From NCBI GenBank assembly GCA_964574215.1, contig CAZNLR010000010.1:9954-73953 (forward strand): a stretch of 64,000 nucleotides of DNA, read 5' to 3'. Position 1 is the first letter of the stretch, and every line of letters starts with the position of its first letter. Below are positions 40,812 to 62,528 of this stretch, in pieces. The position numbers and the translations under genes are program-made. Under the pieces are notes generated by a model. That model had not been told where the DNA came from. It did not search any database and worked only from the letters and a program-made list of their open reading frames with translations. The stretch is from an uncultured Rhodospirillaceae bacterium. GTDB lineage: Bacteria > Pseudomonadota > Alphaproteobacteria > Rhodospirillales > UBA2165.

Positions 40812-40844
40812 GGGCGGGGCGTCAGGTCCCGCCCGTTTTCTTTG
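40812..40844 (+). terminator. Rho-independent terminator of the Mo-subunit gene
   Basis: The stem GGGCGGGGC/GTCCCGCCC (9 bp including one G-U) has a 5-nt loop and is followed by GTTTTCTTT. The 3' arm overlaps the last codons of the convergent TRAP permease gene. Confidence 0.65.
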
Positions 40845-42705: not shown

Positions 42706-42811
42706 ATTTTCCTGTTTCAGTAAATGAGGGGCTCAAGATGCGCAGGGCCTCCAATGGAGGCCCTGCTTAATTATTTAGTGCATTGTGACATAAAATTTTC
42801 TTCCGGCTTTT

Positions 42812-43750: not shown

Positions 43751-43894
43751 TTTTCATCCTCGTTTGGTTGTTTATCTGGGGAACACAACCTTGGTTTCCC
43801 CATTTTTTAGTGCAGCAATAGTATCCATCTGGAAAAATTAATCAATGAAAACGGACACTAATTGTGTTCTTTTAAATTGATTCCAAAAGTCGGA

Positions 43895-45979: not shown

Positions 45980-46009
45980 AACCGATATTTAATCACCGAA
46001 ACCGGCGCG

Positions 46010-46046
46010 GGAAAAGAAAAACGGGCGGGACCGTAGGGTCCCGCCC
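46010..46046 (-). terminator. Rho-independent terminator of nirS
   Basis: Perfect 10-bp stem GGGCGGGACC/GGTCCCGCCC (46023-46032 / 46037-46046) with a 4-nt loop. On the minus strand it is followed by GTTTTTCTTTTC. Confidence 0.8.
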
Positions 46047-46070
46047 GCAAAAAATGTACCGGCGTACGAT

Positions 46071-47834
<1,764 letters not shown>

Positions 47835-47873
47835 CTAGCGGCGAAACATTGCTATTTGCTTGGGTATACGTCC

Positions 47874-47887
47874 TTGACTTAAATCAA
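47874..47887. promoter_or_regulatory. FNR/NNR/Dnr-type box in the nirS-nirI divergent spacer
   Basis: TTGAC-TTAA-ATCAA (TTGAT-N4-ATCAA consensus family), 45 nt upstream of the nirS ATG within the 201-bp divergent spacer. Confidence 0.7.
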
Positions 47888-48029
47888 GGCTGGGAAGGCC
47901 TAATTTGTGGATTAAGCGAGTAGTGTTATTTGATTTTACCGCTGAACCTTGCAGCAATTATGAATATGATTCGGTTGTGCTGATTCTGTTTGATAATACA
48001 TTAGAATAAAATGATATGAGAAACATATA

Positions 48030-50231
48030 GTGTATCAATTCACTAGGACTTTGTTTTATCCGATTCTGATATTGGCGGCGGTGATGCTGCCGGCCTGTAT
48101 GGGCTCGGGTTCCTTTGGCACCGCAGCATATGGCGCTGAGAAAATTCAGGGAGCCGACCAAGAAAAATACGCAAAATTTTTTCCTCACTTATTTCCCAAG
48201 GCGACTTATTTCGGCGGAATCTCCGGTTCGCCTCCTTCGGTGCCGGTCTTTAACGATCAATCACTAATCGGCTATGTATTTTTCTCTCGGCAAGTATCCG
48301 CTTCTGTCGGTTATTCGGGGAAACCGTTGAATGTCTTGGTCGGGCTTGATTTAGAAGGAACCATTACCGGCGTCAGGATCGTCGAGCATCATGAACCAAT
48401 TTTGGCCATCGGGATTACGGACAAGGATCTAAAAGAATTTACGCGGCAATATGTCGGGCTTAATGTCCGCAATCCCGTGCGCATCACCCGAAACCGGGAA
48501 GGAGACCAGGATGACAATACGCTGGATGCGGTCAGCGGCGCTTCAATTTCTTCTATCGTACTGAATGACGCCATAATTCGTTCGGCCAGAGCGGTGGCTC
48601 GTAGCCGCGGTCTATTGGGTAAGGCCGGCCAGCTTTTAGATTTCGATCAGTATTCCCCAGCCAGTTGGCAGGAACTGCTCGAAGAAGGTTCAATTGTCGA
48701 GCGTCATTTGACCATCAAACAGGCCGCGTCAATATTAGCTTCGAAGAAGGCAAGATTGTTCCCAGGCGGAGGCGGGCCGACCAACCTAATGTCATCTTTT
48801 ATTGACCTATCCTTTGGCTTGGCGACGCCGGCTCGGGTCGGACGTAACCTTATCGGCAGACACAGCATCAATGAAATTGTGGCGGGGTTATCGAATGGCG
48901 ACCAGTTATTGTTCCTTGCCGCCAATGGCTACTATTCTTTTCGTGGGCGGGCGTTTCGAAAAATCGGTTATTTCGACCGCATCAGTGTCGTTCAGGGAGA
49001 GCAGAGTTTTCGGCTAACTAAGAATGACTATGTGAGAATTGATCAGTTGCAGGTGGCCGGTGCTCCGGAATTTCGTGAAATTGCGATATTTAAAATTAGA
49101 AAATCAAGCGGTTTTAAAGCAAGCGAACCCTGGCGCCTGGACCTAACCATTGGCGGTGAAAAAGCGAACGGGGAAAAGGCCTTCTCCACCATATCTACAC
49201 TATATAAATTGCCAAAACGCTATTTTCGCAAGCTTGATCCATCGATCAGCATGGACGAACGCATTTGGCTTCAGGTTTGGGAAGAACGATTTGTCGAAAT
49301 CGTTGTCCTGGTTCTCGCTTTAACGGCGCTTACCGGATTTTTCTTTTTTCAGGACTGGGGCGCGCAGCGCCAGCGACTCTATGACATTACCCGCCTCTTT
49401 TTCCTGGTCTTCACGGTGATTGGCCTGGGCTGGTATACGGATGCCCAATTGTCGGTCATTAACGTTCTTACATTTATGCAATCATTATTGACCGAATTTC
49501 GCTGGGATTTCTTCCTGCTGGAACCGCTCATATTTATATTGTGGGGCGGAACGGCATTGTCTTTATTATTCTGGGGGCGGGGCGCTTTTTGCGGCTGGCT
49601 TTGTCCCTTTGGCGCTATGCAGGAATTGTTGGCCAAGTTTGCCCAATTCGTCCGCCTTCCCCAGCTTTCCTTACCCTGGGGCGTTCACGAAAGGCTTTGG
49701 CCTCTCAAATACATTGTTTTTGTCGGCCTGTTCGCCCTGTTCCTTGGTGACGAAGATTTGGCGTTGATGGGTACCGAGATAGAGCCCTTCAAAACAGCCA
49801 TCGTCATGGGATTTGACCGGGCTTGGCCATTTGTACTATATGCCGCAGTTTTGCTCGGTGTCGGCCTTTTTATTAACCGGTTTTTTTGCCGCTACATTTG
49901 TCCCCTCGGCGCTGCCCTAGCGATACCGGCGCGCGTTCGAATGTTCGAGTGGTTGAAAAGGCGTTGGCAGTGCGGCCTGCAGTGTCATATCTGTGCCGAC
50001 AAATGTCCCATTCAGGCCATTCATCCCGACGGACATATTAATCCCAACGAATGTATTTACTGCCTCAATTGTCAGGTTATTTATCATGACGATTCGGTGT
50101 GCCCGCCCCTCGTCGAGAAGCGCAAACGAAACGAAATGCGTCTCGACAAAAGTTTAGTAAAAAGGTTTGAAAAAGCCGAGCAGAAGGGAGAACAGGCGGA
50201 TTCGGTGGAAAGGTCCGAAAATCGTGAATAA
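48030..50231 (+). CDS. nirI: NirI/NosR-family membrane FMN/FeS protein
   Basis: 733 aa. It has a periplasmic FMN-bind motif (LDAVSGASISS), TM helices with CGWLCPFG / CRYICPLG motifs, and C-terminal ferredoxin-type CxxCxxCxxxCP motifs. It is divergent from nirS, as nirI is in Paracoccus. The GTG start at 48030 is uncertain. Confidence 0.85.
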   Translation: MYQFTRTLFYPILILAAVMLPACMGSGSFGTAAYGAEKIQGADQEKYAKFFPHLFPKATYFGGISGSPPSVPVFNDQSLIGYVFFSRQVSASVGYSGKPLNVLVGLDLEGTITGVRIVEHHEPILAIGITDKDLKEFTRQYVGLNVRNPVRITRNREGDQDDNTLDAVSGASISSIVLNDAIIRSARAVARSRGLLGKAGQLLDFDQYSPASWQELLEEGSIVERHLTIKQAASILASKKARLFPGGGGPTNLMSSFIDLSFGLATPARVGRNLIGRHSINEIVAGLSNGDQLLFLAANGYYSFRGRAFRKIGYFDRISVVQGEQSFRLTKNDYVRIDQLQVAGAPEFREIAIFKIRKSSGFKASEPWRLDLTIGGEKANGEKAFSTISTLYKLPKRYFRKLDPSISMDERIWLQVWEERFVEIVVLVLALTALTGFFFFQDWGAQRQRLYDITRLFFLVFTVIGLGWYTDAQLSVINVLTFMQSLLTEFRWDFFLLEPLIFILWGGTALSLLFWGRGAFCGWLCPFGAMQELLAKFAQFVRLPQLSLPWGVHERLWPLKYIVFVGLFALFLGDEDLALMGTEIEPFKTAIVMGFDRAWPFVLYAAVLLGVGLFINRFFCRYICPLGAALAIPARVRMFEWLKRRWQCGLQCHICADKCPIQAIHPDGHINPNECIYCLNCQVIYHDDSVCPPLVEKRKRNEMRLDKSLVKRFEKAEQKGEQADSVERSENRE

Positions 50232-50364: not shown

Positions 50365-50378
50365 TTGACTTAGGTCAA
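50365..50378. promoter_or_regulatory. FNR/NNR/Dnr-type box upstream of the heme-copper oxidase operon
   Basis: Perfect palindrome TTGAC-TTAG-GTCAA. It shares TCxTTGACTTA with the nirS box and lies 99 nt upstream of the first ATG (50478) of the operon. Confidence 0.65.
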
Positions 50379-50477: not shown

Positions 50478-50636
50478 ATGACGCCTTCCGACCAACCAAT
50501 GGATGAGCCGATTCCGTTCATGCAGCGGCTATTGGATAATCATTTCTTACTACTTTTTTTAGGAGTTGCTGTACCCACGGTACTTTATATCGTGTGGGGG
50601 ATCGTTGAGATCACGGCAATTCCCGTAGCTAAATAA
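50478..50636 (+). CDS. 52-aa single-pass membrane peptide (not in ORF track; candidate small oxidase subunit)
   Basis: ATG 50478 is preceded by GAGGGGGA (50465-50472). The product is MTPSDQPMDEPIPFMQRLLDNHFLLLFLGVAVPTVLYIVWGIVEITAIPVAK, ending at TAA 50634-50636. It has one clear TM helix and ends 17 nt before the subunit II start. Confidence 0.55.
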   Translation: MTPSDQPMDEPIPFMQRLLDNHFLLLFLGVAVPTVLYIVWGIVEITAIPVAK

Positions 50637-50653
50637 TAGAAGGGAGACACCAT

Positions 50654-51196
50654 ATGTCTATATTTCCTCCCGAAGAGCGCGTCTGGTGGAACACGCCTGT
50701 AGAGAAAACCGAAGTTCTCTGGGTCACCATCGCCTTCATCTGGGGTTTGATCATGTTCTTCATGATGCCCTATTGGCATTTCACCGGTAACCAGAATATG
50801 TCCAACGAGGCATATCAAATCAGCACTGACAGATATTCCGACCTCACTGAAGCTTTCGCGAAAAAATACAAAGTCCGTGAAGAAGGTGACACCGGCGTTC
50901 CCGTTGTTCGCCCGCCGGCAGGTTCCGACGTTTACCTGTTAGGTCGTCTTTGGGAGTGGTGGCCAATCCTCGAGCTTGAGAAAGGCAAAAGCTACCGCCT
51001 GCATCTTTCCTCGATGGATTACCAGCACGGCTTCTCCTTACAGCCGGAAAACATCAATATTCAGGTTCACCCCGGTTATGAATCGGTAATGACCGTAACA
51101 CCCACGACATCGGGTGAATTCGGCCTTATCTGTAACGAATTTTGCGGCATCGGCCATCACACCATGGTCAGCAAAATGTATGTCACCGATAAATAG
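50654..51196 (+). CDS. Heme-copper oxidase subunit II, CuA cupredoxin (ba3-like short form)
   Basis: 180 aa with one N-terminal TM helix. The complete CuA site is YQHGF ... CNEFCGIGHHTM. It aligns closely with my recollection of Thermus ba3 subunit II (ICNQYCGLGHQNM). Confidence 0.85.
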   Translation: MSIFPPEERVWWNTPVEKTEVLWVTIAFIWGLIMFFMMPYWHFTGNQNMSNEAYQISTDRYSDLTEAFAKKYKVREEGDTGVPVVRPPAGSDVYLLGRLWEWWPILELEKGKSYRLHLSSMDYQHGFSLQPENINIQVHPGYESVMTVTPTTSGEFGLICNEFCGIGHHTMVSKMYVTDK

Positions 51197-51209: not shown

Positions 51210-52907
51210 ATGAGTAACGGTAATTTCCGTATCTGCCCGGACACCGGGTTTAAAGTTGATCTTCCCGGCGAAAAGCTGATCAAGATCAATGCTGTAACTG
51301 CTGTCGTCTTCCTTTTGATCGGCGGTCTCTTCGGCGTTCTCGTCGCCTTGACCCGTTGGCCGGAACTTCACATTCTGCCGGCTGACCTGTTCTACCTGGC
51401 GCTGACGGCGCATGGTCTCGATATCCTGCTGGTCTGGATTATCTTCTTCGAAATCGCCTTGTTGTATTTCTGTTCGTCGATTCTGCTGAATGTCAGATTG
51501 GCGATGCCGAAAATCGCCTGGCTGGCTTATTGGCTGATGCTGATTGGCGCTTTGATCACCAACGTCATCGTTTTGATGGGTGATTCGAATGTGATGTTCA
51601 CCTCTTATGTGCCGATGCAGGCCCATCCCGGGTTTTACCTTGGCATCATCATATTCGCCGTCGGCGCCTTGGTTGGTTGCGGTATCTTCTTCGGTACCCT
51701 GGTGATCGCCAAAAAGGAAAAAACCTATGAAGGTTCAGTTCCGCTGGTTACTTTTGGTGCGATAACGGCTGCCATTATTGCCGTATTCACCATCGCCTCC
51801 GGCGCGGTCATCCTGATCCCGACCTTGTTATGGTCGATGGATTTGATCTCCTACATCGATCCCTTGATGTACAAGATCGTCTGGTGGGCCATGGGACACT
51901 CTTCTCAGCAGATCAACGTTTCCGCCCATATCGCCGTATGGTACGCCATTGCCGCGATCCTGTTCGGCGCCAAACCGCTCTCTGAGAAAGTCAGCCGTTT
52001 CGCCTTCCTGATGTACATCCTGTTCCTGCAACTTGCTTCGGCTCACCACCTTCTGGTGGAACCGGCGCTCAGTTCCGAATGGAAAATCGTCAACACCTCC
52101 TACATGCTCTATCTGGCGGTGATGGCTTCCATGATCCACGGTCTGACAGTTCCGGGCGCGATCGAAGCTGCCCAGAGGAAAAAAGGTTACACCAACGGCT
52201 TGTTCGAATGGCTCCGCAAGGCGCCCTGGAGCAATCCGGTGTTCTCCGGCATGTTCCTGTCCTTGATCATGTTTGGCTTCCTCGGTGGTATCACCGGCGT
52301 CATCATGGGCGTCGAGCAGGTTAACATCATCATCCATAATACGCTGTACGTGCCAGGGCACTTCCACGGTACGGTTGCCGCGGGTACCACCTTGGCCTTC
52401 ATGGCGATAACCTACTGGCTGGTGCCGGTCCTCTTCCGGCGCGAGTTGATCCTGCCGGGTTGGGCCAAATGGCAGCCCTACATCTTCGCCATCGGCATCT
52501 CTTTGCTGTCTTTGGCTATGATGGGCGCTGGTACGTTGGGTGTTTCCCGCCGTCACTGGGACATCACCTTCGCCGACGCGGCGATCAAGTTTGATCACCC
52601 GGCCTTGGCGCATCTGATGATGGGTCTCAATGGTGTTGCGGCATTGATCTGCATGGTCGGTGGCTTCATGTTCATTGCCGTGATCGTGGGCTCCCTTCTG
52701 TGGGGTAAACATCGCGGATACGAACCGGCTCCGGAAGCGGCGGCCGAGGCCGAAGCGCCTCCTGCTTCGGCGATGTCGGCCCACGGCGATGCGGGCACCA
52801 TGGAAGTACCAGGGACATTTGTCCTGGCATTGGTCTTCCTGGCGACCTTCGTCCTCTACTACTTCGTGAACTGGAAGTTCTTGGCTTCCACGTGGGGTCT
52901 CAGCTAG
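51210..52907 (+). CDS. Heme-copper oxidase subunit I, B-family-like, lacking the cross-linked Tyr (candidate NO reductase catalytic subunit)
   Basis: 565 aa. The His ligands are retained (LTAHGLD; WWAMGH; SAHHLL; VPGHFHGTV). The helix VI motif reads GHSSQQINVSAH where ba3 has GHPIVYFWLLPAY. Confidence 0.75.
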   Translation: MSNGNFRICPDTGFKVDLPGEKLIKINAVTAVVFLLIGGLFGVLVALTRWPELHILPADLFYLALTAHGLDILLVWIIFFEIALLYFCSSILLNVRLAMPKIAWLAYWLMLIGALITNVIVLMGDSNVMFTSYVPMQAHPGFYLGIIIFAVGALVGCGIFFGTLVIAKKEKTYEGSVPLVTFGAITAAIIAVFTIASGAVILIPTLLWSMDLISYIDPLMYKIVWWAMGHSSQQINVSAHIAVWYAIAAILFGAKPLSEKVSRFAFLMYILFLQLASAHHLLVEPALSSEWKIVNTSYMLYLAVMASMIHGLTVPGAIEAAQRKKGYTNGLFEWLRKAPWSNPVFSGMFLSLIMFGFLGGITGVIMGVEQVNIIIHNTLYVPGHFHGTVAAGTTLAFMAITYWLVPVLFRRELILPGWAKWQPYIFAIGISLLSLAMMGAGTLGVSRRHWDITFADAAIKFDHPALAHLMMGLNGVAALICMVGGFMFIAVIVGSLLWGKHRGYEPAPEAAAEAEAPPASAMSAHGDAGTMEVPGTFVLALVFLATFVLYYFVNWKFLASTWGLS

Positions 52908-53036: not shown

Positions 53037-53951
53037 ATGTTCAAAATTGAGATACGCAGAATACTGATGTTGGCTGGTTTGGCGCTGGCAGTGGCACCGA
53101 TGCTGGCGGCGCCGGAAAATCTGAGCATCGTTACACCGGCCTTCGGTGATGAAAACGGAAAACGCAAGTTCACCCGCGAATCGTTCCCGGGAGCGTCCAA
53201 GTTCAATCCCGAATCGGCCTACAAGTACAGCCAATCGGCCGTCGGGAAGACCATCGGCAATTACCGGTTCCTCGGTACTGACGGAAAAAGACTGAACCTG
53301 GATCAGTTCAGGGGAGAACCTTTGATCATCAGTATGGTTTATTCCAGCTGTTTCGATATCTGTCCGGCCATTACCATGAATCTGGCTTCCGCCGTCGACA
53401 AGGCGCGGAAAGTTTTGCCTGATAAAAAGTTCAACGTGATATCCATTGGTTTCGACACGTTGCACGATTCGCCCGCGGCCATGAAATTGTTCGCCCGCCA
53501 ATATGACGTCAGCGGCGACAATTGGAAGGTGGTCAGCGGCTCACCCGATGCGGTGGAGCGTTTGGCCGCCGATACCGGCTTCATATATTACAGGTCAGCC
53601 AGAGGATTCGACCATCTGATGCAGACCACCCTGGTGGACGCCGACGGCAAAGTGGACACCCAGATTTACGGCGAAAACTTCGACGCCACCCTTTTGGTTG
53701 AGCCCCTAAAACAACTTTATTTCGGCGGTATTGCCTCGGTGACGAACGTCGAATCCTTTGTCAATCGCGTGCGCCTGTTCTGCACCATCTATGATCCCAA
53801 GACAGACGCTTATAAATTTGATTACTCTTTTTTCATCGGCATGGCGTTAAGCGCTATCGTCCTCTTGCTGATGGGGAATTTTGTCGTCCGCAATGTGTGG
53901 CGGTTGTGGTTTTCCGATCACAAATCCGGCAACGGAACAGCAATGTCTTGA
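53037..53951 (+). CDS. senC: Sco1/SenC-family copper chaperone/thiol-disulfide protein with C-terminal TM extension
   Basis: 304 aa with a signal/anchor, the thioredoxin-fold CxxxCP motif (SSCFDICPAI) and the conserved His context GFDHL. An extra C-terminal TM segment is present (FFIGMALSAIVLLLMGNFVV). Confidence 0.8.
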   Translation: MFKIEIRRILMLAGLALAVAPMLAAPENLSIVTPAFGDENGKRKFTRESFPGASKFNPESAYKYSQSAVGKTIGNYRFLGTDGKRLNLDQFRGEPLIISMVYSSCFDICPAITMNLASAVDKARKVLPDKKFNVISIGFDTLHDSPAAMKLFARQYDVSGDNWKVVSGSPDAVERLAADTGFIYYRSARGFDHLMQTTLVDADGKVDTQIYGENFDATLLVEPLKQLYFGGIASVTNVESFVNRVRLFCTIYDPKTDAYKFDYSFFIGMALSAIVLLLMGNFVVRNVWRLWFSDHKSGNGTAMS

Positions 53952-53981: not shown

Positions 53982-55586
53982 ATGTTAGAAAAAATCCAAA
54001 CTCCGCTGCAGGCGGCACTGTTAATCTTTGAGGGCTGGTTCGACCGCCCGTTAGGTCCCGACTGGAATCCGCTCCGCCATCTGGGCGCTTTGTCCTTCTT
54101 CTTTTTCTGGGTGGTCGTGGTTAGCGGCATTTATGTGTACATCTTTTTTGAAACCAGCGTATCCGGTGCCTACAGCTCTATCGAGCGCATGACCGTCGAT
54201 CACTGGTATTTCAGCGGCGTTATGCGAAGTTTTCACCGTTATGCCTCTGACGCCATGGTGGTGGTCGTTCTGCTGCATATGTTCCGTGAATTTATCATGG
54301 ACCGGTATCGCGGTATCCGCTGGTTTACCTGGGTCAGCGGAATTCCCACCATCTGGCTGCTTTATGCGTCGGGCATCGGCGGCTATTGGCTGGTGTGGGA
54401 CGAATTCGCCCAGTATCTCATCATCGCGTCTTCCGAATGGCTCGACTGGTTGGGTATTTTCGGTGAGCCTCTGGCCAATAATTTCCTGACCCGTGAAGCC
54501 TTCACGGACCGGATGTTTTCGCTGTTGCTGTTTCTCCATATCGCCATTCCGCTGTTCCTGCTGATCGCCAGTTGGATTCACGTCATCAAGATTTCCCGGC
54601 CCCGGATCAATCCGCCCAAAGGATTGGCCATCGGCACCATCGCCATGATGACCGTGTTGTCCTTGATAAAGCCGGCCGTCAGCGATACGCCCGCCGACCT
54701 CAGCATTGTGCCGCAGGAACTCAACCTGGATTGGTTCTATGCCCTGCTTTATCCGTTGTATGACAAGTGGGGCGCAGGGGCGCTGTGGATGATCACGGTC
54801 GGTGTGTCGTCCTTCTTGACCATCCTGCCTTGGTTGCCGCCGCAGAAAATCAATGATTCCGCCGAAGTCGACAATCTGAACTGCAACGGTTGTTCCCGTT
54901 GCTACACGGACTGCCCGTTCGGCGCCGTCACCATGCAGCCGCGAACCGACGGCAGGCCTTATCCGCGTATCGCCGAAGTCAATCCGGATATCTGTACGGC
55001 GTGCGGCATCTGCGTCGGGGCTTGCCCGACGGCGACACCGTTTCGCAGTCAGGATATGCTGGTAACGGGGATCGACCTGCCCAGGTACCGGTTGACGGAA
55101 CTGCGGGAAAGCACGGACAAGTCACTGGCGCAGTTGAAAGAGAAAGTATCCGGCGATAAGCCGCGCATCATTGTCTATGGCTGTGATTTCGGTATCGACG
55201 TTAAGCAGATCGACGCGCCCAACGTGGTGGTCACCAAACTCCCCTGTATCGGTATGCTGCCGCCGTCGTTTGTCGACTACATCCTGATGCGCGGTAAGGC
55301 CGACGGGGTCATGTTGACCGGTTGCCGGGAGGGTGATTGTTTCCACCGCTTCGGCATTCAATGGACGGAGCAGCGGATGGCCGGTGACCGGGATCCTTAC
55401 CTGAGAAAACGGGTGCCGGTTGAACGGGTGCGCACCTGCTGGGGTGCGGTAACAGACTCCAAAAAGCTTCATCAGGAAATAGCCGAGTTCGAGGCGCATT
55501 TGTCGGCGTTGCCGACGATCGAGGTTCTATCTCCTGAAAAACCGCGCAAACCCGTTGCGGACAAACCGAAAGGGGAGGCTGCGTGA
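53982..55586 (+). CDS. Fusion protein: di-heme cytochrome b (bc1/b6 N-terminal type) + 2x[4Fe-4S] ferredoxin + MvhD/FlpD-like domain
   Basis: 534 aa. The four His are in the cyt b pattern (RSFHRY, VLLHMF..GYWLVW, LFLHIA, SWIHVI). The ferredoxin motifs are CNGCSRCYTDCP and CTACGICVGACP. The MvhD-like segment is PRIIVYGCDFG...LPCIGMLPPSFVDYILMRGKADGVMLTGCREGDCFHRFG. Confidence 0.75.
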   Translation: MLEKIQTPLQAALLIFEGWFDRPLGPDWNPLRHLGALSFFFFWVVVVSGIYVYIFFETSVSGAYSSIERMTVDHWYFSGVMRSFHRYASDAMVVVVLLHMFREFIMDRYRGIRWFTWVSGIPTIWLLYASGIGGYWLVWDEFAQYLIIASSEWLDWLGIFGEPLANNFLTREAFTDRMFSLLLFLHIAIPLFLLIASWIHVIKISRPRINPPKGLAIGTIAMMTVLSLIKPAVSDTPADLSIVPQELNLDWFYALLYPLYDKWGAGALWMITVGVSSFLTILPWLPPQKINDSAEVDNLNCNGCSRCYTDCPFGAVTMQPRTDGRPYPRIAEVNPDICTACGICVGACPTATPFRSQDMLVTGIDLPRYRLTELRESTDKSLAQLKEKVSGDKPRIIVYGCDFGIDVKQIDAPNVVVTKLPCIGMLPPSFVDYILMRGKADGVMLTGCREGDCFHRFGIQWTEQRMAGDRDPYLRKRVPVERVRTCWGAVTDSKKLHQEIAEFEAHLSALPTIEVLSPEKPRKPVADKPKGEAA

Positions 55587-56089
55587 TGGGCCGTATTTTT
55601 GATATTCTCGGACAAGGCGTTGCTTATCTTCTGTTTGCGTTGTTTGTCGGGTATTTCGCCAACTCACCGCCTTACAGCCCGTTGGAAAAGGATCAGGCGC
55701 TGGTCAGGCTGAGCATCTCCTACCCCGGACAGCGCATTGCCGAATGCCGCAAGCTGTCGGCCAAGGAACTGCGCGCGAAGGCTCACAACATGCGCAAAGC
55801 CTTCGATTGCCCGCGGGAGCGTCACGCCGTGCGGATCGAGGTGCTGATGGATGGCAAGCCGTTATACGACGGCATCGTCTCGCCCTCGGGTTTGGCCAAT
55901 GACGGTAAATCCCTTTTCTACGAAAACTTTCCCGTTCCCGCCGGCGAACATACGCTGATGGCCCGGCTTTACGACAACGGCGCTAATAAAAAAGCCGGGT
56001 TTCAGGGTGAAAGAGCAGTGCAGCTTGCACCCGGCAAAGTCGCCATCGTCGGTTTCGACCATCGGGATCATAAAATTATGATCAAGTAG
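55583..56089 (+). CDS. Membrane-anchored protein of unknown function
   Basis: 168 aa. GTG 55583 or ATG 55586 overlaps the upstream stop, and AAAGGGGAGG SD lies upstream. It has one N-terminal TM helix (VAYLLFALFVGYF) followed by a soluble domain with no motif I recognise. Confidence 0.6.
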   Translation: MMGRIFDILGQGVAYLLFALFVGYFANSPPYSPLEKDQALVRLSISYPGQRIAECRKLSAKELRAKAHNMRKAFDCPRERHAVRIEVLMDGKPLYDGIVSPSGLANDGKSLFYENFPVPAGEHTLMARLYDNGANKKAGFQGERAVQLAPGKVAIVGFDHRDHKIMIK

Positions 56090-56323: not shown

Positions 56324-56509
56324 ACGCTGGCTGCGCGTGCGCCTATGAATCACCGTTAGAATTTCAATTTTGCCCATTTATATGGCTGAAATTAAACCTT
56401 TTCCTCCCATTTTTCAAATAATTCTAAAATTAACTAAAAAATTCTAACTTCTATTTGATTTTTTACTAAAGGTTTGATATCTTGTTGGCTGATTGACGAG
56501 GCCCCAAAA

Positions 56510-57157
56510 ATGCAAGAATTAAAATCAACTTATAAAACCGAGAAAAAAAGCCGCCGCCGCCGGGAAATTCTGGATGGGGCCGCTGCCGTAATTGCCGAGC
56601 ACGGCTATTTTGCCGCCTCAATGAAAGATATCGCTGATCGGCTCGATCTGAGACCCGGCAGTCTTTACTATTATCTCAAATCGAAGGAAGCCGCCCTCGA
56701 AGAAATCTGCTGGGACGGTGGCATGGAATATGTCTATTACGTCGAACGACTGGCCAAAAGCGGCGCGCCCGCCATGGAAATAATAAGATCAGCCATTAGT
56801 CATCACCTGAGAAATGAAAAACGCGATTACGTTGAATGTTTCGTTTACAACCGGCGTCATCTCGGTGGTGCAGTGGCCGATGGGTTGAACGATGTGGCGC
56901 GGCGATATCTGCGCGCCTGGATTGGGGTTTTTGAACAAGGCATAGAGGAAGGCGTTTTTTCGCTGGGTCTTGATTGCCGATTTGCTGCCACGACGGCGTT
57001 GTCGGTGGTAAACGGCGCGACGCTTGCCTTGAGGGGCAAAGGATCGGAGGAATCGGACCGGTATATTCGTCAAACCACGGAATTTTTTCTCACGGGACTG
57101 GGTGTCTCCGGATGCGGTGAGCCCGCCTACGTAAAAAAGAAAGTTGCCATCGGATAG
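56510..57157 (+). CDS. TetR/AcrR-family transcriptional regulator
   Basis: ATG 56510 is preferred over the TTG 56474 of the track. The HTH is RRREILDGAAAVIAEHGYFAASMKDIADRLDLRPGSLYYYLKSKEAAL. Confidence 0.85.
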   Translation: MQELKSTYKTEKKSRRRREILDGAAAVIAEHGYFAASMKDIADRLDLRPGSLYYYLKSKEAALEEICWDGGMEYVYYVERLAKSGAPAMEIIRSAISHHLRNEKRDYVECFVYNRRHLGGAVADGLNDVARRYLRAWIGVFEQGIEEGVFSLGLDCRFAATTALSVVNGATLALRGKGSEESDRYIRQTTEFFLTGLGVSGCGEPAYVKKKVAIG

Positions 57158-57223
57158 TAAGAGTTTTGATCAAGGGGAGGGGGTTTTCTCCCATTTAACA
57201 TTTCCAGGAAGGAGGAAATTAAC

Positions 57224-57871
57224 ATGACTGACCAATCAAAATTAGTAGACCTAATCGCCGGTATGGACGAAGAGCCCGCCGTCAAATTATCGGTCGAACT
57301 CATGGATGCGGGTACGCCGCCGGAAGATATTCTGGCCGCCTGCCGCCAAGCCATGGATATCGTCGGTAAGAAATTCGAGGAAGGCGAATTCTTTATTCCC
57401 GAGTTGATTCTGGCCGGTGAAATGCTGGAACAGATCGGTAACGAGGTGAAACCTCGCATTAAGGACACTGCCGGCCCGGCCAAGGAAACGTTGGGTACGG
57501 TGATCATCGGTACGGTGCACGGTGATTTGCACGATATCGGTAAAAATATCGTGACCTTCATGTTGGACGTGAACGGCTACGAAGTCATTGATCTTGGCGT
57601 CGACGTCAAACCGCAGGCTTTCATCGATGCTATCAAGGAAAGCTCGGCGCCCGTGGTGGGTCTCAGCGGTTTCCTGACCTTGGCGTTCGATTCCATGAAA
57701 GAAACGGTTGAAGCCATTACCGAGGCCGGTCTCCGCGATAACATTAAAATCATGATCGGCGGCGGACAGGTCGATGAACAAATCCGGACTTACACCGGCG
57801 CCGATTCCTTCGGTCTCAATGCCATGACCGCGGTATCGCAATGCCGGGAATGGATTGCCGAAGCCGCCTAA
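57224..57871 (+). CDS. Corrinoid (cobalamin-binding) protein of a methyltransferase system
   Basis: 215 aa with a GGAAGGAGG SD. It has an N-terminal helical cap plus a B12-binding Rossmann domain with DxHxxG (GDLHDIGKN) and GGG (IMIGGGQV). Confidence 0.85.
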   Translation: MTDQSKLVDLIAGMDEEPAVKLSVELMDAGTPPEDILAACRQAMDIVGKKFEEGEFFIPELILAGEMLEQIGNEVKPRIKDTAGPAKETLGTVIIGTVHGDLHDIGKNIVTFMLDVNGYEVIDLGVDVKPQAFIDAIKESSAPVVGLSGFLTLAFDSMKETVEAITEAGLRDNIKIMIGGGQVDEQIRTYTGADSFGLNAMTAVSQCREWIAEAA

Positions 57872-57896
57872 GCGGTAAACATGACACCAATCTAAG

Positions 57897-59321
57897 ATGG
57901 GTGGGGAAATGCTCGCACTACGAACATGGTCGGCACAGCATGCGCGTTTGGTCGAGATCGTCTATACGGCGTTCTCGCAGGCGGTAAAGCTGTTTACGCC
58001 CATTTTCCGGCGGGTTCCCCAATCCCTTTTAGAGGGGCCGGTCAAAGGCGTCGAACGTTGGGCCAAAGGCTTGATGTTCGATTGCCAGATGTGCGGCCAA
58101 TGCGTGCTCAGTGAAACGGGTATGTCGTGCCCCATGAACTGCCCCAAAAGTCTGCGCAACGGTCCCTGCGGCGGGGTATTCGAAGACGGCGGCTGCGAAG
58201 TGAAGCCGGAAATGCGCTGTGTCTGGTTTAACGCCTGGGACGGCGCCGGCCTGATGAAAAAAGGTGATACGATAAAAGATATCCGCCGACCACTGCGCCA
58301 AAGAATGGCTGGTAAATCAACCTGGGTTCCGATCATGCGGGGCGAGGGTGCCCGCCCGCCGTGGCTGGAGGATGATGACATTGACAGCGACTCCTCTGTC
58401 ACAAAACCGCCGCTCAGCCGTCTTCAGGAAATTTTGCAGGCGGGCGAGTTTGCCGTTACCTGCGAATATAATCCCCCGAATACGGTGATAACCGCCGATA
58501 TTGTGTCCAAAGCGGCATCGTTGGTCGAGGCGTGTGACGCCGTCAATGTCACCGATTGCGCCGGCGCGTATGTCCACATCTCCAGTCTGGCCACCTGCGC
58601 TATCTTGACCCGGGAAGGCGCCGAGCCGGTCATGCAGATGACGTGCCGAGACCGCAATCGCCTGGCCGTTCAGGCTGATATCATGGGGGCCGCGGCGCTG
58701 GGAATTAAGAACATTTTATGCATGACCGGTGATGCGGTCGAGGGCGGTGATCATCCCGACGGCAAGCCGGTTTTCGATCTGGATTCGTCTTCCCTGATCA
58801 GGACCGTTAAGCATATGCGGGATGAAAAAAGTTTTGTGACGGGGAAAGATCTGAAATCAGCCCCCAACCTTTTTATCGGTGGCACGGCCAATCCCATGGC
58901 GCCCTCGACGGAGATCGAAATCAACCGGATGATTAAAAAAGCCGCTGCCGGGGCGCAGTTTTTCCAAACTCAGTTCTGCTATGACATGGAACGGTTCGAG
59001 GCTTTCATGAGCGCCTACCGCGAAACCGGACTGCAAAAATCACGTCACCTGATTATCGGGATCGGCCCTTTGAATTCTGCCCGGGCGGCGCGTTGGATGA
59101 GGGAAAATATTCCCGGTGTCAGAATCCCGCGGGCCATCATCGACCGAATGGAAAGCGTCACAGACCAGAAAGCCGAAGGCCGCGAAATCTGCATAGAAAC
59201 CATCAACCAGTTGAAACATATAGACGGCGTATCCGGCGTTCACATCATGGCCATCAACCAGGAAAGCGCCATTCCGGAAATTGTAAAACGGGCTGAAATC
59301 GGCCCACAATTTAGGAACTAG
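57897..59321 (+). CDS. metF: Fusion of a MetV-type Cys-rich (MTHFR_C) domain with methylenetetrahydrofolate reductase (MetF)
   Basis: 474 aa. The N-terminal ~150 aa carry CQMCGQC-x8-CPMNCPK-x5-PCGG. The remainder is a MetF TIM barrel (FAVTCEYNPP, VNVTD, MQMTCRDRNR, NILCMTGD). Confidence 0.75.
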   Translation: MGGEMLALRTWSAQHARLVEIVYTAFSQAVKLFTPIFRRVPQSLLEGPVKGVERWAKGLMFDCQMCGQCVLSETGMSCPMNCPKSLRNGPCGGVFEDGGCEVKPEMRCVWFNAWDGAGLMKKGDTIKDIRRPLRQRMAGKSTWVPIMRGEGARPPWLEDDDIDSDSSVTKPPLSRLQEILQAGEFAVTCEYNPPNTVITADIVSKAASLVEACDAVNVTDCAGAYVHISSLATCAILTREGAEPVMQMTCRDRNRLAVQADIMGAAALGIKNILCMTGDAVEGGDHPDGKPVFDLDSSSLIRTVKHMRDEKSFVTGKDLKSAPNLFIGGTANPMAPSTEIEINRMIKKAAAGAQFFQTQFCYDMERFEAFMSAYRETGLQKSRHLIIGIGPLNSARAARWMRENIPGVRIPRAIIDRMESVTDQKAEGREICIETINQLKHIDGVSGVHIMAINQESAIPEIVKRAEIGPQFRN

Positions 59322-59328
59322 GGATATT

Positions 59329-60567
59329 ATGAATAAAGACTCCAAAGAATTATTCGACGAACGCCGTCAGCGCATTGCCGATCAAGTGGCGTTGAAAGAG
59401 ACCGACCGGATTCCGTTTTTCTATTCGACCCGGTTCTGGGCGGCGACCTTGGACGGCATTACCTTTGAAGAATCCATGTACGACGTGGAAAAAGCCGTCA
59501 AATCCAATACAAGAGCCATTGAACTGTTGCAGCCGGACGCTTTCTCACCGGCCTGCCATCCCTTCGGCCAGGCCATGGAAATAATGGACTACCATCCTGT
59601 TGAGTGGCCGGGTCATGGCACCGATCCCAATGCTTGTTTTCAATATATCGACAAGGAGTTTATGCCCGCCGATGAATACGACGAGTATCTGACCGACCCG
59701 ACAAATTTCTACATGCAGAAATATCTGCCCAGGATCGGCGGCGCTTTCGAAGGGCTCAAGCACTTTCCCGAATTCACCACCTTATCGGAATGGAGCCTGA
59801 TCAGCGGTATGCGGGCTTTCGCCAATCCTGAACTGCAGGAATCCTTTAAGCGCCTGATGGAGGCCGGCGAACTGGTCGATGCCGCCATGAACCGGGTGAC
59901 CGAGTTTATGAAGGAGATGATCGCGTTGGGTTATCCCATGGCTGCCGGCGGGTTCTGCAAGGCACCCTACGACCACATCGTCGACTTTCTGCGGGGCTCC
60001 AAGGGCGGCATGCTGGATATGTTCCGCCACAAGGACAAGATGCTGGAAGTGATCGAAAAAGCGCGGCTCAAACTGATCAAGGGTGTCGCCGAAGGGGCCA
60101 AGAAAGTCGACTGCCCGTATGTCTTTATCCCTCTTCATTGGGGGCTGGACGGGTTCATGTCGCCGGATCAGTTTAAGACCTTCTATTGGCCGGGACTGCA
60201 CAGGACCCTCATGTATTTTATCGAGCAGGACATTGTCCCCGTCGTTCTGTGGGAAGGTGATTGCACCACGCGCTTGGAAATGATCGGGGACGTTCCCGCC
60301 GGCAAGGCCGTCTATTGGTTTGAACGCACCGATCTGGTTCAAGCCAAGGAAGTGCTCGGCGACGTTGTCTGCCTGCGGGGCAATGTGCCTGCCTCACTGC
60401 TCAACACCGGTACGCCCGATGAAGTAGATGACTACTGCAAAAATTTAATTGAGAAAGTCGGTAAGGGCGGCGGCTTCATGCTGGACGGTGCCGCCAGTAT
60501 CCCAGATGAATCACCGACGGAAAACATCGTCGCCATGGCCGAGTCGGTCAGAAAGTATGCCAATTAA
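59329..60567 (+). CDS. Uroporphyrinogen-decarboxylase (URO-D)-family methyltransferase, paralog 1
   Basis: 412 aa. It has a URO-D/MtaA-like TIM-barrel pattern with a C-terminal block (VFIPLHWGLDGFMSPDQF...LWEGDC...LRGNVP) shared with the next gene. Confidence 0.65.
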   Translation: MNKDSKELFDERRQRIADQVALKETDRIPFFYSTRFWAATLDGITFEESMYDVEKAVKSNTRAIELLQPDAFSPACHPFGQAMEIMDYHPVEWPGHGTDPNACFQYIDKEFMPADEYDEYLTDPTNFYMQKYLPRIGGAFEGLKHFPEFTTLSEWSLISGMRAFANPELQESFKRLMEAGELVDAAMNRVTEFMKEMIALGYPMAAGGFCKAPYDHIVDFLRGSKGGMLDMFRHKDKMLEVIEKARLKLIKGVAEGAKKVDCPYVFIPLHWGLDGFMSPDQFKTFYWPGLHRTLMYFIEQDIVPVVLWEGDCTTRLEMIGDVPAGKAVYWFERTDLVQAKEVLGDVVCLRGNVPASLLNTGTPDEVDDYCKNLIEKVGKGGGFMLDGAASIPDESPTENIVAMAESVRKYAN

Positions 60568-60586
60568 TTTTAAGGAGGGGGAACCC

Positions 60587-61834
60587 ATGTCAGATAAAAG
60601 CGGTGAAGAACTTTATGCGGAGCGCGTGCAACGCATTCGGGACAATATTGACCTGAAGGAAACCGACCGGGTTCCCTACACATTTTTCTCCCACTTCTGG
60701 TCGGCGACGCTGGCGGAGATGACGTTCGAAGACGCGATGTATGATTACGACCGCTACAACGACGCCATGCGCAAGACCATGGAAGTCCTCAATCCCGACG
60801 ACTACGCCATGACGCAAATATTTATCAGTCTGGGACCGACCCTGGAACGCATGGGTTTCAAGCAACTGGAATGGCCGGGCCACGGCACCGATCCCAACGT
60901 GTCCTATCAGTTTTTGGATCAGGAATATATGTCGGCGGACGAATACGACGACTATTTGCGCGACCCGACGGGCTTTTTCCTGCGTAAATATATGCCGCGG
61001 GTGGCGACGGCGTTTGAGCCTTTGGCCATGCTGCCCAATTTCTCCTCGCTTTATTACACCAAGATGATCCGGGCGACGACGGCTTTCGCCAATCCCAAAC
61101 TGATGGCGGGGTTCGAGGAAATTGCCGAAGCCGGCCGGGAAATGCGCAAAATGATGGGGGGCGCCATCGCCTTCACCCAGGAAATGGAGGCGCTTGGTTA
61201 TCCGCAGAGCATCGGCGGTACGGCGGCGGCACCGTTCGATCATTTCGCCGACTATCTGCGCGGCTCCAAGGGCGCCATGCTGGATATGTTCCGTCACAAA
61301 GACAAGCTTTTGGAAGCCATGGACAAGGCGGCTTACTTCATCGCCGAAGACACCATCGAAGCCACCAAGCACAATCCCTGTAAGCAGGTGTTTATTCCTC
61401 TCCATTGGGGATTGGATGGCTTTATGTCACCGGATCAGTTCAACACCTTCTTCTGGCCGCAATTGCGAAAAATCATCCTGATGCTAATCGAAGCAGATTT
61501 GACGCCTTGCGTATTGTGGGAAGGTGACTGCGATACGCGGCTTGAATTCATCGGCGATATTCCGGAGAAAAAAGCCGTTTACTGGTTCGAAAAAACCGAT
61601 CTCAAAAAAGCCAAAGACGTGCTGGGCGATGTGGTTTGCCTGCGCGGTAACGTGCCGTCCTCCATGTTGACCACCGGTACGCCCGACGATGTCGATGAGT
61701 TCTGCAAGGACCTCATCAAATATGTGGGTAAGGGTGGCGGCTTTATTTTGGACGGCGCCATCGGCGTGCCGGACGAGGCGAAGACCGAGAATGTGGTCGC
61801 CATGGCGCAATCCGTTCACAAATACGCCAACTAG
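60587..61834 (+). CDS. URO-D-family methyltransferase, paralog 2
   Basis: ATG 60587 after AAGGAGGGGG is preferred. The track start 60449 lies inside the previous gene. 415 aa, collinear with paralog 1. Confidence 0.65.
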   Translation: MSDKSGEELYAERVQRIRDNIDLKETDRVPYTFFSHFWSATLAEMTFEDAMYDYDRYNDAMRKTMEVLNPDDYAMTQIFISLGPTLERMGFKQLEWPGHGTDPNVSYQFLDQEYMSADEYDDYLRDPTGFFLRKYMPRVATAFEPLAMLPNFSSLYYTKMIRATTAFANPKLMAGFEEIAEAGREMRKMMGGAIAFTQEMEALGYPQSIGGTAAAPFDHFADYLRGSKGAMLDMFRHKDKLLEAMDKAAYFIAEDTIEATKHNPCKQVFIPLHWGLDGFMSPDQFNTFFWPQLRKIILMLIEADLTPCVLWEGDCDTRLEFIGDIPEKKAVYWFEKTDLKKAKDVLGDVVCLRGNVPSSMLTTGTPDDVDEFCKDLIKYVGKGGGFILDGAIGVPDEAKTENVVAMAQSVHKYAN

Positions 61835-61844
61835 GAAACGAAGC

Positions 61845-62528
61845 ATGCCCGTCGTCACTCAATGGCCCGCTCTGCTGTCTCTGGAGAACCTCTGGAAATG
61901 GCACGGCATCAAATGCCGGGGCGGCCTGCATCCCAAGTTCAAGGAGATGGCGCCGGACGTGTTGGCGGAAGCTGAGGAAATGCAACTGCTACAGCCGAAA
62001 ATGGTCTACGAGGTGCTTCCGGTGGAGGACATGGGCGATTTGCTGTCTGAAATGCCCAATGCGGCGGCACGCATTAAGGATGCATCGAAATTGGCGGTAG
62101 CGGTAGCCACCATTGGGCCGGGTATCGAAAACCGGATCAATGAGCTGTTCGTTCAGAAAAAGGCGATGAAGGCTCTGGTCTACGAGGAACTTGGCGTTGC
62201 CGCCATGTTCAAACTTTCCAACGAAGTGCTGAAATACCTTCAACGGCAGGCGTCGGAACTGGACCTTGATCCCAGCGGTCCTCTCCATCCCGGTGATAAC
62301 GATGCCGATATTTTTCTCCAACACCAGGTCCATGAATTGGTGGATGGCGGCCTCATCGATGTGTCGGTGATCGAATCGGGTATGTTGAAACCGGCCAAAT
62401 CGCTTTCGATTCTTGTCGGCTACGGCGAAGGACTAATCAGGTGGCGGAGAGAAGAAAACTGCGAGACCTGCCAGATACGGGATGTTTGCCGCTACAGAAA
62501 TAATGAAACGGAACTGGCACTAGCATGA
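61845..62528 (+). CDS. Methionine-synthase-activation-domain-like protein (Met_synt_B12-like); function uncertain
   Basis: ATG 61845 is used, because the track start 61689 lies inside the previous gene. 227 aa. The segments GPLHPGDND and SGMLKPAKSLSILVGYG resemble the RPAPGYP and SVSG elements of the MetH reactivation domain. The C-terminus has CETCQIRDVC. Confidence 0.45.
   Translation: MPVVTQWPALLSLENLWKWHGIKCRGGLHPKFKEMAPDVLAEAEEMQLLQPKMVYEVLPVEDMGDLLSEMPNAAARIKDASKLAVAVATIGPGIENRINELFVQKKAMKALVYEELGVAAMFKLSNEVLKYLQRQASELDLDPSGPLHPGDNDADIFLQHQVHELVDGGLIDVSVIESGMLKPAKSLSILVGYGEGLIRWRREENCETCQIRDVCRYRNNETELALA

Follow-up and report, generated by a model that had tools for sequence, protein, structure and literature searches.

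What does a bc-type cytochrome b that ends in an iron-sulfur (FeS) tail do among the genes of a heme-copper oxidase (HCO)? The question is raised by a gene in a 64,000-nucleotide (nt) stretch of DNA from an uncultured Rhodospirillaceae bacterium (contig CAZNLR010000010.1, positions 9,954 to 73,953), referred to here as the window. The gene encodes a protein of 534 amino acids (aa), called the fusion protein below, in which a cytochrome b6/subunit-IV-like part, two [4Fe-4S] motifs and an MvhD-like domain are joined. The original prediction had proposed two partners for it, the neighbouring Tyr-less oxidase and a MetV-MetF reductase encoded further downstream. Comparison with related loci reveals that genes of this family accompany one class of NO reductase, eNOR, in a conserved order, and gene context together with sequence suggests that the fusion protein probably supplies this N2O-producing enzyme with electrons.

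The eNOR operon

The fusion gene lies within the following row of features.

50365-50378, no strand: FNR/Dnr/NnrR-type box TTGACttagGTCAA, a perfect palindrome found by reading the DNA, 290 nt upstream of cox2
50479-50637, plus strand: small open reading frame (ORF) of 52 aa with a single transmembrane (TM) helix, read as probably a small eNOR subunit
50654-51196, plus strand: eNOR subunit II (cox2), a cupredoxin with COX2/CoxB matches and a complete CuA motif, CNEFCGIGHHTM
51210-52907, plus strand: eNOR subunit I (cox1), HCO catalytic subunit with GHSSQQ (PF00115, E=2e-65)
53037-53951, plus strand: SenC/Sco1 copper chaperone with a C-terminal extension (PF02630, E=2e-13)
53982-55586, plus strand: fusion protein, ATG start, 534 aa, uninterrupted translation
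55583-56089, plus strand: p168, 168 aa, a single TM helix and a periplasmic beta-sandwich with a conserved Cys pair, from sequence and model

The fusion gene starts 30 nt after senC and its stop overlaps the start of the p168 gene, so that it lies inside the HCO operon, as had been predicted. Which HCO this is can be read from subunit I, where Gln234 (within GHSSQQ) occupies the position of the cross-linked Tyr; H230, Q233, Q234 and HH279-280 are invariant in 5 diverse partners. The extended motif GHxSQQIN occurs in 142 of 169 fetched loci, and the CuA pattern C.E.CG..H..M in 143 of them. Gln at this position is diagnostic of eNOR (PMC8756737), a family for which NO reduction was demonstrated in Rhodothermus marinus (PMC11214002). 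Because subunit I has Gln at the Tyr position and subunit II a CuA site, the partner is to be classed as an eNOR and not as the sNOR of ammonia oxidisers.

The original prediction had raised a possible link to the norSY-senC-orf1 (sNOR) cluster of ammonia oxidisers. This cluster and the Bacillus cbaCBA-senC-cbaD cluster do share with the present operon a small subunit, a CuA subunit II, a Tyr-less subunit I, SenC and a membrane protein (PMC3475470, PMC4940428). However, Bacillus azotoformans bNOR carries Asn at the Tyr position (PMC3475470) and sNOR is described as having the active site of bNOR (PMC11214002), so that Gln234 rules out an sNOR identity for the neighbouring oxidase. The gene after senC in the Bacillus cluster, an organisation reportedly common to Nitrosomonas eutropha sNOR, encodes a protein of about 190 aa with six TM helices and, unlike the fusion protein, without an FeS/MvhD part (PMC3475470). 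Papers on the clusters of ammonia oxidisers give no description of orf1. The link to the sNOR cluster is probably wrong.

To what extent does the fusion gene accompany eNOR elsewhere? Among genomes scanned at one per species, at least 595 encode a relative of the fusion protein. Gene order was determined by tblastn in the best 80 genome loci, whose fusion relatives are at least 48% identical, and also, starting from the eNOR side, in metagenome loci whose downstream DNA extends over 3 kb or more and whose eNOR relatives are at least 67% identical. All of the 80 genome loci with enough flank display cox2-cox1-(ctaB)-senC-fusion-p168 in the same order and on the same strand. From the eNOR side, the fusion gene is found downstream of subunit I in 44 of 44 metagenome loci. 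Co-occurrence with Tyr-less HCO genes, named in the original prediction as a check on itself, is therefore seen in both directions. SenC is encoded directly upstream of the fusion protein in every locus with upstream flank, p168 follows in 81 of 82 loci, and the gap of about 1 kb between cox1 and senC is in many loci filled by heme o synthase (ctaB). Small ORFs homologous to the 52-aa ORF (MQRVLDNPFLLLF...) precede cox2 in at least 32 loci and are also called at that site in loci L082, L086 and L087.

The palindromic box is shared as well. Of 59 related loci, 44 have TTGAY-N4-RTCAA at a distance of up to 700 nt before cox2, mostly 250-380 nt, compared with a chance expectation of 0.07 per 700 nt. 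Inside the operon, scans for sigma-70 promoters and terminators did not perform better on the real sequence than on shuffled controls. About 20 kb upstream lie the genes of two Crp/FNR-family regulators (27035-27781, plus strand; 31780-32487, minus strand), whose products are candidates for binding the box.

The best 80 loci belong to Alpha- and Gammaproteobacteria, for example Bradyrhizobium, Sulfuricaulis, Acidiferrobacterales and Woeseiaceae. Distant lineages also keep the cluster (L085, L086, L087 and L089/L090), L086 and L090 in its core form. The fusion protein thus appears to be an obligate eNOR partner across Proteobacteria and beyond, a general rule that has apparently not been described before. 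One locus labelled 'uncultured Halobacteria archaeon' (L038, CAWKAE010000009.1) contains a cluster of proteobacterial type with a fusion protein 51% identical to that of the window, plus nirS and nosR-like genes; this may be a case of binning error or of horizontal transfer.

An unbiased census of neighbours revealed nirS and a NosR-like gene near the cluster in about half of related loci, and FNR/CRP regulators, NnrS, c-type cytochromes or cupredoxins in a minority. In 65 of 82 loci, p168 is directly followed by a gene for a hemerythrin-domain protein, which neither the window nor its closest relatives (L002-L004) possess. The encoded protein has about 130 aa (PF01814, 7e-14) and its gene lies about 0.5-0.9 kb past the fusion stop, for example at 3025-3417 of L021.

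The frequent hemerythrin gene agrees with a reading in which the fusion protein is an independent quinol dehydrogenase of the NarI/NarH kind that hands both electrons to an acceptor in the cytoplasm, such as hemerythrin, eNOR being only co-regulated. So do two stand-alone homologues without HCO genes in the available DNA (L083, L084), and the usual clients of di-heme b anchors with FeS wires are catalytic subunits in the cytoplasm or periplasm (PMC5600118). Against it speak the invariable order and strand shared with eNOR, the translational coupling of the genes, and fusions of cytochromes b of this subfamily to HCO subunit I, to SenC and to periplasmic domains; moreover, the window keeps the fusion gene though hemerythrin is missing. 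We regard such independence as highly improbable.

Layout of the fusion protein

Four segments can be delimited within the fusion gene.

54069-54596, plus strand: helices A-D, di-heme cytochrome b6-like core, residues 30-205 (Pfam Cytochrome_B, cytochrome b6 profile match, invariant His)
54618-54836, plus strand: helices E and F with an ef loop carrying LDWF, residues 213-285, a Qo-type quinol-pocket element on the positive (P) side of the membrane, from alignment with subunit IV
54861-55037, plus strand: two-[4Fe-4S] ferredoxin domain, residues 294-352 (Fer4 families, eight invariant Cys)
55116-55511, plus strand: MvhD/FlpD-like domain, residues 379-510 (PF02662), with C401, C422, C448 and C453 as putative [2Fe-2S] site

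In a Pfam scan, matches above gathering scores were obtained for Cytochrome_B (residues 33-204, E=7e-15), Cytochrom_B_N_2 (E=1e-11), several Fer4 families (residues 294-351, E ~1e-9) and FlpD PF02662 (residues 413-510, E=3e-13, 50.2 bits against a cut-off of 22.3). NCBIfam has no model specific to the fusion protein; the best ones, ExtP cytochrome b, the HdrA2 C-terminus and cytochrome b6, remain far under their cut-offs. Current annotations know the family only as 'hydrogenase iron-sulfur subunit' or 'cytochrome b N-terminal domain-containing protein'. Since thousands of full-length homologues share the same architecture, a chance origin of the fusion is excluded. Conservation was assessed in alignments of 18 and of 37 homologues with 32-93% identity, and an AlphaFold model was obtained with a predicted local distance difference test (pLDDT) score of 87.7 and a predicted template-modelling score of 0.84. 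Judged by its sequence, the layout is that of a cytochrome b6 followed by helices E and F of subunit IV, two [4Fe-4S] motifs and MvhD.

The N-terminal part bears the four-His pattern of a di-heme cytochrome b that the original prediction had recognised, in agreement with the Pfam Cytochrome_B match. The pairs are His85/His99 and His186/His200, with 13 residues inside each as in bc1, and all four residues are invariant in the 37-sequence alignment. Likewise, the GYxLxW motif is present as GYWLVW at residues 134-139, and the two or so further TM helices that had been noticed match helices E and F of b6f subunit IV and bc1 cytochrome b. In a profile search of PDB sequences this part matched cytochrome b6 at 4e-33 and also bc1 cytochromes b. 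Two bis-His heme b sites, stacked across the membrane, are thus predicted. The CxGG motif of heme cn is missing: the site of b6 Cys35 is taken by His33 (consensus Gln), for which reason a third heme is not expected.

Of the subunit-IV part, helices E and F are present and G and H absent. The LDWF sequence in the ef loop pairs with PEWY of b6f subunit IV in an alignment of a single 91-aa segment with marginal E=0.025; of its residues, Asp250 is the same in all 37 aligned sequences and Trp251 in 90% or more of them. By Foldseek, the model superposes on bc1 cytochrome b through helix F (about 295 columns, about 4.5 Å), and the Qo-forming helices C, cd, ef and F are complete in it. No Rieske family was encountered in the neighbour census of 82 loci, and a cytochrome c gene lies near the fusion gene in only about 15 of them.

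A retained Qo-type pocket suggests a mode of action in which the fusion protein would work as a Q-cycle-like bifurcating device lacking a Rieske protein. Quinol would be oxidised on the P side, the high-potential electron going to CuA and the low-potential one inward to NAD+ or ferredoxin, by way of the P-side heme, the heme on the negative (N) side, FeS, MvhD and a flavoprotein; NO reduction would then pay for reverse electron flow. The kept PEWY-type loop with its Asp and Trp and the complete Qo-forming helices are as such a device would have them, and NAD-linked modules are fused or adjacent in some lineages. Many carriers belong to lithoautotroph-like lineages in which NADH has to be made at the expense of high-potential donors (Sulfuricaulis, Acidiferrobacterales, Nitrospinota, Ferrigenium). 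A preprint on Ferrigenium puts forward exactly this, a quinol:NAD+ oxidoreductase to which the reduction of NO is coupled (10.64898/2026.01.22.701106). Cytochrome b complexes of anammox bacteria and of subfamily G, which have NAD(P)/FeS subunits, have been discussed as a precedent (PMC5600118). However, a Rieske-type acceptor is missing and CuA as its stand-in is purely hypothetical; the module is equally conserved in heterotrophic Rhodospirillales and Bradyrhizobium; and the Fer2-FAD-NAD and diflavin modules normally oxidise NAD(P)H. Electron movement would moreover have to work against the membrane potential, and the step from typical heme b potentials to NAD+ is uphill. Bifurcation, the main rival of the reading favoured below, is for these reasons unlikely. 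A shade less likely still is its explicit form, with the fusion protein as a Rieske-less Q-cycle core in which CuA takes the first quinol electron at the LDWF pocket and the second reduces NAD+ or ferredoxin.

The middle of the fusion protein matches polyferredoxins and the C-terminal ferredoxin of HdrA among PDB sequences. Both CxxCxxCxxxCP motifs claimed in the original prediction are there, as C301xxC304xxC307xxxC311P and C338xxC341xxC344xxxC348P; all eight Cys are invariant in the 37-sequence alignment, and the Fer4 families match. Assignment of the last domain to the MvhD family is likewise borne out, by PF02662 above threshold and by MvhD chain 5odc_D, which the PDB profile search retrieved at 1e-16 (fusion residues 379-500 against chain residues 4-129 of 140). 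C401, C422 and C448 do not vary among the 37 sequences, and C453 is kept in 90% or more of them; C422, C448 and C453 align with Cys residues of MvhD and are putative cluster ligands. Neither Hdr nor hydrogenase genes were found in the window or among the families recurring in related loci.

As to topology, loops B-C and D-E are positively charged and A-B, cd and ef are acidic. The positive-inside rule and the count of six helices place the FeS/MvhD tail in the cytoplasm, the location that had been predicted for it. The description of the protein in the original prediction is thus right in all its points.

p168 and domain fusions in the wider family

The p168 gene starts in a TGATG overlap with the fusion stop and has a GGGGAGG ribosome-binding site, an arrangement from which the two genes are predicted to be co-transcribed and translationally coupled. 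The AlphaFold2 model of p168 (pLDDT 88.9) gave only generic matches to beta-sandwiches of carbohydrate-binding-module or immunoglobulin-like type, with E >= 0.004. A redox function was sought in p168 and no metal-site pattern was found; its two conserved Cys fit a periplasmic disulfide.

A HMMER search of 1.8 billion cluster representatives returned 3428 matches to the fusion protein, 527 of them below 1e-30. Many representatives have 680-720 aa and consist of the fusion protein with a p168 homologue at its C-terminus, joined through one TM helix; those with names come from metagenome-assembled genomes (MAGs) of Deltaproteobacteria, Nitrospirota and Nitrospinota. Such a linkage ties p168 to the fusion protein and puts its beta-sandwich in the periplasm.

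Other representatives carry a cytochrome b of the same subfamily (39-48% identity over helices A-F) joined to different partners. These are Fer2-FAD-NAD in P0164, flavodoxin-FAD-NAD as in a CysJ-like diflavin reductase in P0171, SenC in P0235 (SenC-cytochrome b-Fer4) and a C-terminal cytochrome c in P0264. In P0258 (761 aa) the cytochrome b, 39% identical over helices A-F and with SLDWFY, is followed by a divergent domain resembling HCO subunit I, which is 27% identical to the eNOR of the window and has GGGHVLQF at the CuB-His site. In two further loci, L085 and L087, the order is cox2-cox1-ctaB-senC-fusion-NuoF-like-fusion. Here paralogous cytochrome b-FeS-MvhD-p168 genes stand on either side of a NuoF-like gene (FMN/NADH/[4Fe-4S]; 4586-10082 in L085, 9001-14467 in L087), and their fusion proteins are annotated as, or group with, proteins of Nitrospinota/Nitrospirota MAGs.

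P0171 sits in an eNOR cluster next to NnrS. Its contig, Ga0256829_1000073 (L089/L090), first bears an eNOR cluster with fusion protein and p168, then a second COX1, PCuAC, CtaG and SenC, and further on the 827-aa cytochrome b-flavodoxin-FAD-NAD protein itself (P0171) and NnrS. The N-terminal third of the 827-aa protein (about 270 aa) is 100% identical to the first fusion protein on the contig; the identical stretch could be a recent duplication or an assembly artefact.

Proposed electron transfer to eNOR

Taken as a whole, the predicted cofactor sites form a continuous chain that leads from a cytoplasmic MvhD-type site over two [4Fe-4S] motifs and two hemes b to a quinol-type pocket on the P side. 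The reading we favour, and to which we give an even chance, is that the fusion protein is a conserved accessory and dedicated transmembrane electron-transfer subunit of eNOR, working in the direction of input. A cytoplasmic reductant, most likely NAD(P)H, would enter through a flavoprotein docked on the MvhD-like domain, a position that in other lineages may be held by the NuoF-like gene product or by the fused Fer2-FAD-NAD and flavodoxin-FAD-NAD domains. From the [2Fe-2S] site the electrons would run over the two [4Fe-4S] clusters, then over the N-side and finally the P-side heme b, to exit at the periplasmic surface and reach CuA of eNOR. A second entry point may exist at the retained quinol pocket, p168 may serve as a structural adaptor, and the operon would be expected to be expressed under low O2 and/or NO.

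Input is the favoured direction for three reasons. NAD(P)H-FAD-FeS reductase modules (FNR-like, diflavin) normally run from NAD(P)H to an acceptor, and the NuoF-like, Fer2-FAD-NAD and diflavin modules of other lineages are of the kind that oxidises NAD(P)H. Di-heme b wires feeding periplasmic acceptors have precedents in NOX/Fre and MsrQ. Finally, direct NADH-driven systems of NO detoxification are common. In Ferrigenium, cytochrome b-FeS and cytochrome b-FeS-FAD-NADH proteins were reported together with both eNOR subunits in the proteome of denitrifying cells (bioRxiv 10.64898/2026.01.22.701106).

Several points weigh against this assignment. The direction of flow is inferred from gene content and domain fusions, and one of these fusions, P0171, carries little weight as a sign of direction, being a singleton that shares its cytochrome b part, at 100% identity, with a neighbouring cytochrome b-Fer4-FlpD gene of its contig. 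Among the 40 ORFs scanned in the window, no flavoprotein, Hdr or NuoF-like partner was found elsewhere, and the absence of a flavoprotein is unfavourable. The P-side heme of bc1 is too far from the Rieske cluster for direct transfer, so that the heme-to-CuA step is hypothetical. Ordinary periplasmic donors could suffice for eNOR, because it has CuA and cytochrome c or cupredoxin genes lie near some loci. Synteny figures apply to relatives within the identity limits given above (fusion at least 48%, eNOR at least 67%) and not to all eNORs. Some distant family members are solitary: in L083 and L084 no HCO is encoded in the 8 kb before the gene or in the 2-4 kb after it, where the contig ends. 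Isolated R. marinus eNOR is active with tetramethyl-p-phenylenediamine/ascorbate, and the report mentions no such subunit (PMC11214002).

The same activity with artificial donors, from a paper without such a subunit (PMC11214002), is in keeping with a role in maintenance, activation or maturation, comparable to that of NosR/NirI for NosZ/NirS, instead of catalytic electron donation. The fusion protein would keep the metal centres of eNOR reduced, or provide electrons for insertion of heme o/a or copper. It is flanked by assembly genes (ctaB, senC) and small accessory proteins, P0235 unites SenC with a cytochrome b-Fer4 protein, and the neighbouring NosR/NirI-like protein follows a similar design logic of membrane domain plus cytoplasmic FeS. 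But a di-heme b core with quinol-pocket loop and three-cluster chain is elaborate for maturation, the NuoF-like and FAD/NAD partners suggest sustained electron flux, and the Ferrigenium proteins were reported from denitrifying cells in the preprint cited above. A maintenance role is therefore improbable.

The first hypothesis of the original prediction, a dedicated electron-input module of the Tyr-less oxidase, thus has strong comparative support from reciprocal synteny, domain fusions and FNR-type regulation as far as partnership is concerned; its mechanism and the direction of flow stay at the level of inference.

Comparison with known systems

Cytochrome b6 plus subunit IV of b6f, and cytochrome b of bc1, share with the fusion protein the fold, two bis-His hemes, the GYxLxW cd region, a PEWY-type ef loop and helices A-F. 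They differ in that fusion loci lack a Rieske protein and, in every locus, cytochrome c1/f, while the fusion protein lacks the heme cn motif and helices G and H and holds on its N side an FeS/MvhD chain in place of an obvious Qi site.

A di-heme b membrane subunit wired to cytoplasmic FeS is also found in QmoABC, HdrDE, DsrMK and NarI-NarH, which connect quinol to cytoplasmic redox chemistry, and MvhD-like domains occur in Qmo and HdrA2. In contrast to the fusion protein, these systems use cytochromes b of NarI/HdrE type, not of the bc-type fold, and none is tied to a heme-copper enzyme. NosR/NirI are membrane proteins with cytoplasmic [4Fe-4S] motifs that a periplasmic-facing N-oxide reductase needs in vivo; they differ by an unrelated fold, an FMN-binding periplasmic domain and the lack of hemes b and MvhD. 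The fusion protein is a bc-type cytochrome b used as anchor for an FeS chain of Hdr/Mvh style.

Dibrova et al. 2017 (PMC5600118) describe cytochromes b of subfamily G that are accompanied by NAD(P)/FeS oxidoreductase subunits, and a clade G' from 'large conserved operons of unknown function'. As in the anammox Rieske/cytochrome b complexes (Kartal 2013 and de Almeida 2016, as cited in PMC5600118), a bc-type cytochrome b anchors a cytoplasmic FeS/NAD(P)-linked module, and bifurcation was proposed (PMC5600118). Here, however, FeS and MvhD are in one chain, a Rieske subunit is absent and the eNOR partner is fixed.

The eNOR operon of Ferrigenium straubiae comprises eNOR II, eNOR I, heme o synthase, sco1 and a 'scaffold protein', and the cytochrome b-FeS-FAD-NADH and cytochrome b-FeS genes of this organism were termed 'rather unusual' and possible markers of Ferrigenium-dominated communities (bioRxiv 10.64898/2026.01.22.701106). 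Compared by gene descriptions, the context and the proposed NAD link are the same; genes that are unusual there are nevertheless the rule among proteobacterial eNOR clusters. A literature search yielded no earlier description of a cytochrome b-MvhD fusion with a heme-copper enzyme beyond this preprint, and the main text of the 2024 PNAS paper on eNOR says nothing of accessory genes. The MvhD domain, the LDWF loop, the p168 fusion and the lack of a Rieske partner appear to be newly defined here.

Neighbouring genes

Immediately upstream of the eNOR operon are two further genes of N-oxide metabolism.

46071-47828, minus strand: cd1 nitrite reductase (nirS)
48030-50231, plus strand: NosR/NirI-like membrane FMN/FeS protein (722.9 bits to NosR, below the 1000-bit cut-off)

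Their divergent orientation recalls nirI-nirS of Paracoccus. Both belong to a block of about 9.4 kb (40822-50231) between a xanthine-dehydrogenase-like gene and the eNOR operon, which further contains TRAP DctM, an NMT1-like binding protein and a 694-aa ORF without Pfam match (43895-45979, minus strand). This block is missing in a 93-97% identical MAG (L001/L002), where only a short NosR-like remnant was detected in its place. The nirS module has apparently been inserted or deleted in recent times.

After the eNOR cluster, positions 56474-62528 encode a TetR regulator, an MtbC/MtgC-like corrinoid protein, a fused MetV-MetF and two URO-D/MtaA-like methyltransferases; in L001 the methyltransferase unit is followed by a RACo activase and a pterin-binding protein as well. 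The unit looks like a demethylation pathway from methyl groups to tetrahydrofolate (THF) in an aerobic or denitrifying alphaproteobacterium.

It is here that the second hypothesis of the original prediction has to be considered. In it, the FeS/MvhD tail serves the MetV-MetF methylene-THF reductase (57897-59321), encoded 2.3 kb downstream together with the corrinoid methyltransferase system, in the manner of acetogen Hdr-MvhD-MetFV; MvhD belongs to the MetFV-Hdr complexes of acetogens (PMC9430772). But the TetR gene and an intergenic gap separate the two units, and HdrA, HdrB and HdrC were not found in the window. Above all, the MetVF and corrinoid genes follow the cluster only in the 93% relative, a Rhodospirillaceae MAG (L001/L002), and in none of about 78 other loci, 75-76% relatives included. 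With synteny confined to this single MAG the hypothesis fails, and we accord it next to no probability.

Implications

We conclude that the fusion proteins are a real, widespread and uncharacterised family, noted in one 2026 preprint. eNOR is reported to rank with the most common NO reductases in natural environments, which makes it an important biological N2O source (PMC11214002). With at least 595 species genomes and hundreds of protein clusters at 50% identity, the family is an obvious candidate for its electron supply. If eNOR receives electrons of NAD(P)H or quinol through the fusion protein, the electron-transport schemes drawn for aerobic and micro-oxic denitrifiers, and the ATP yields assumed for them, need revision. 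Should bifurcation be true, it would constitute a new coupling site, at which the NO/N2O potential generates low-potential reductant in denitrification. The set of eNOR I/II, senC, cytochrome b-FeS-MvhD and p168 also provides a cheap marker, by which eNOR operons now mislabelled as cytochrome c oxidases can be annotated correctly.

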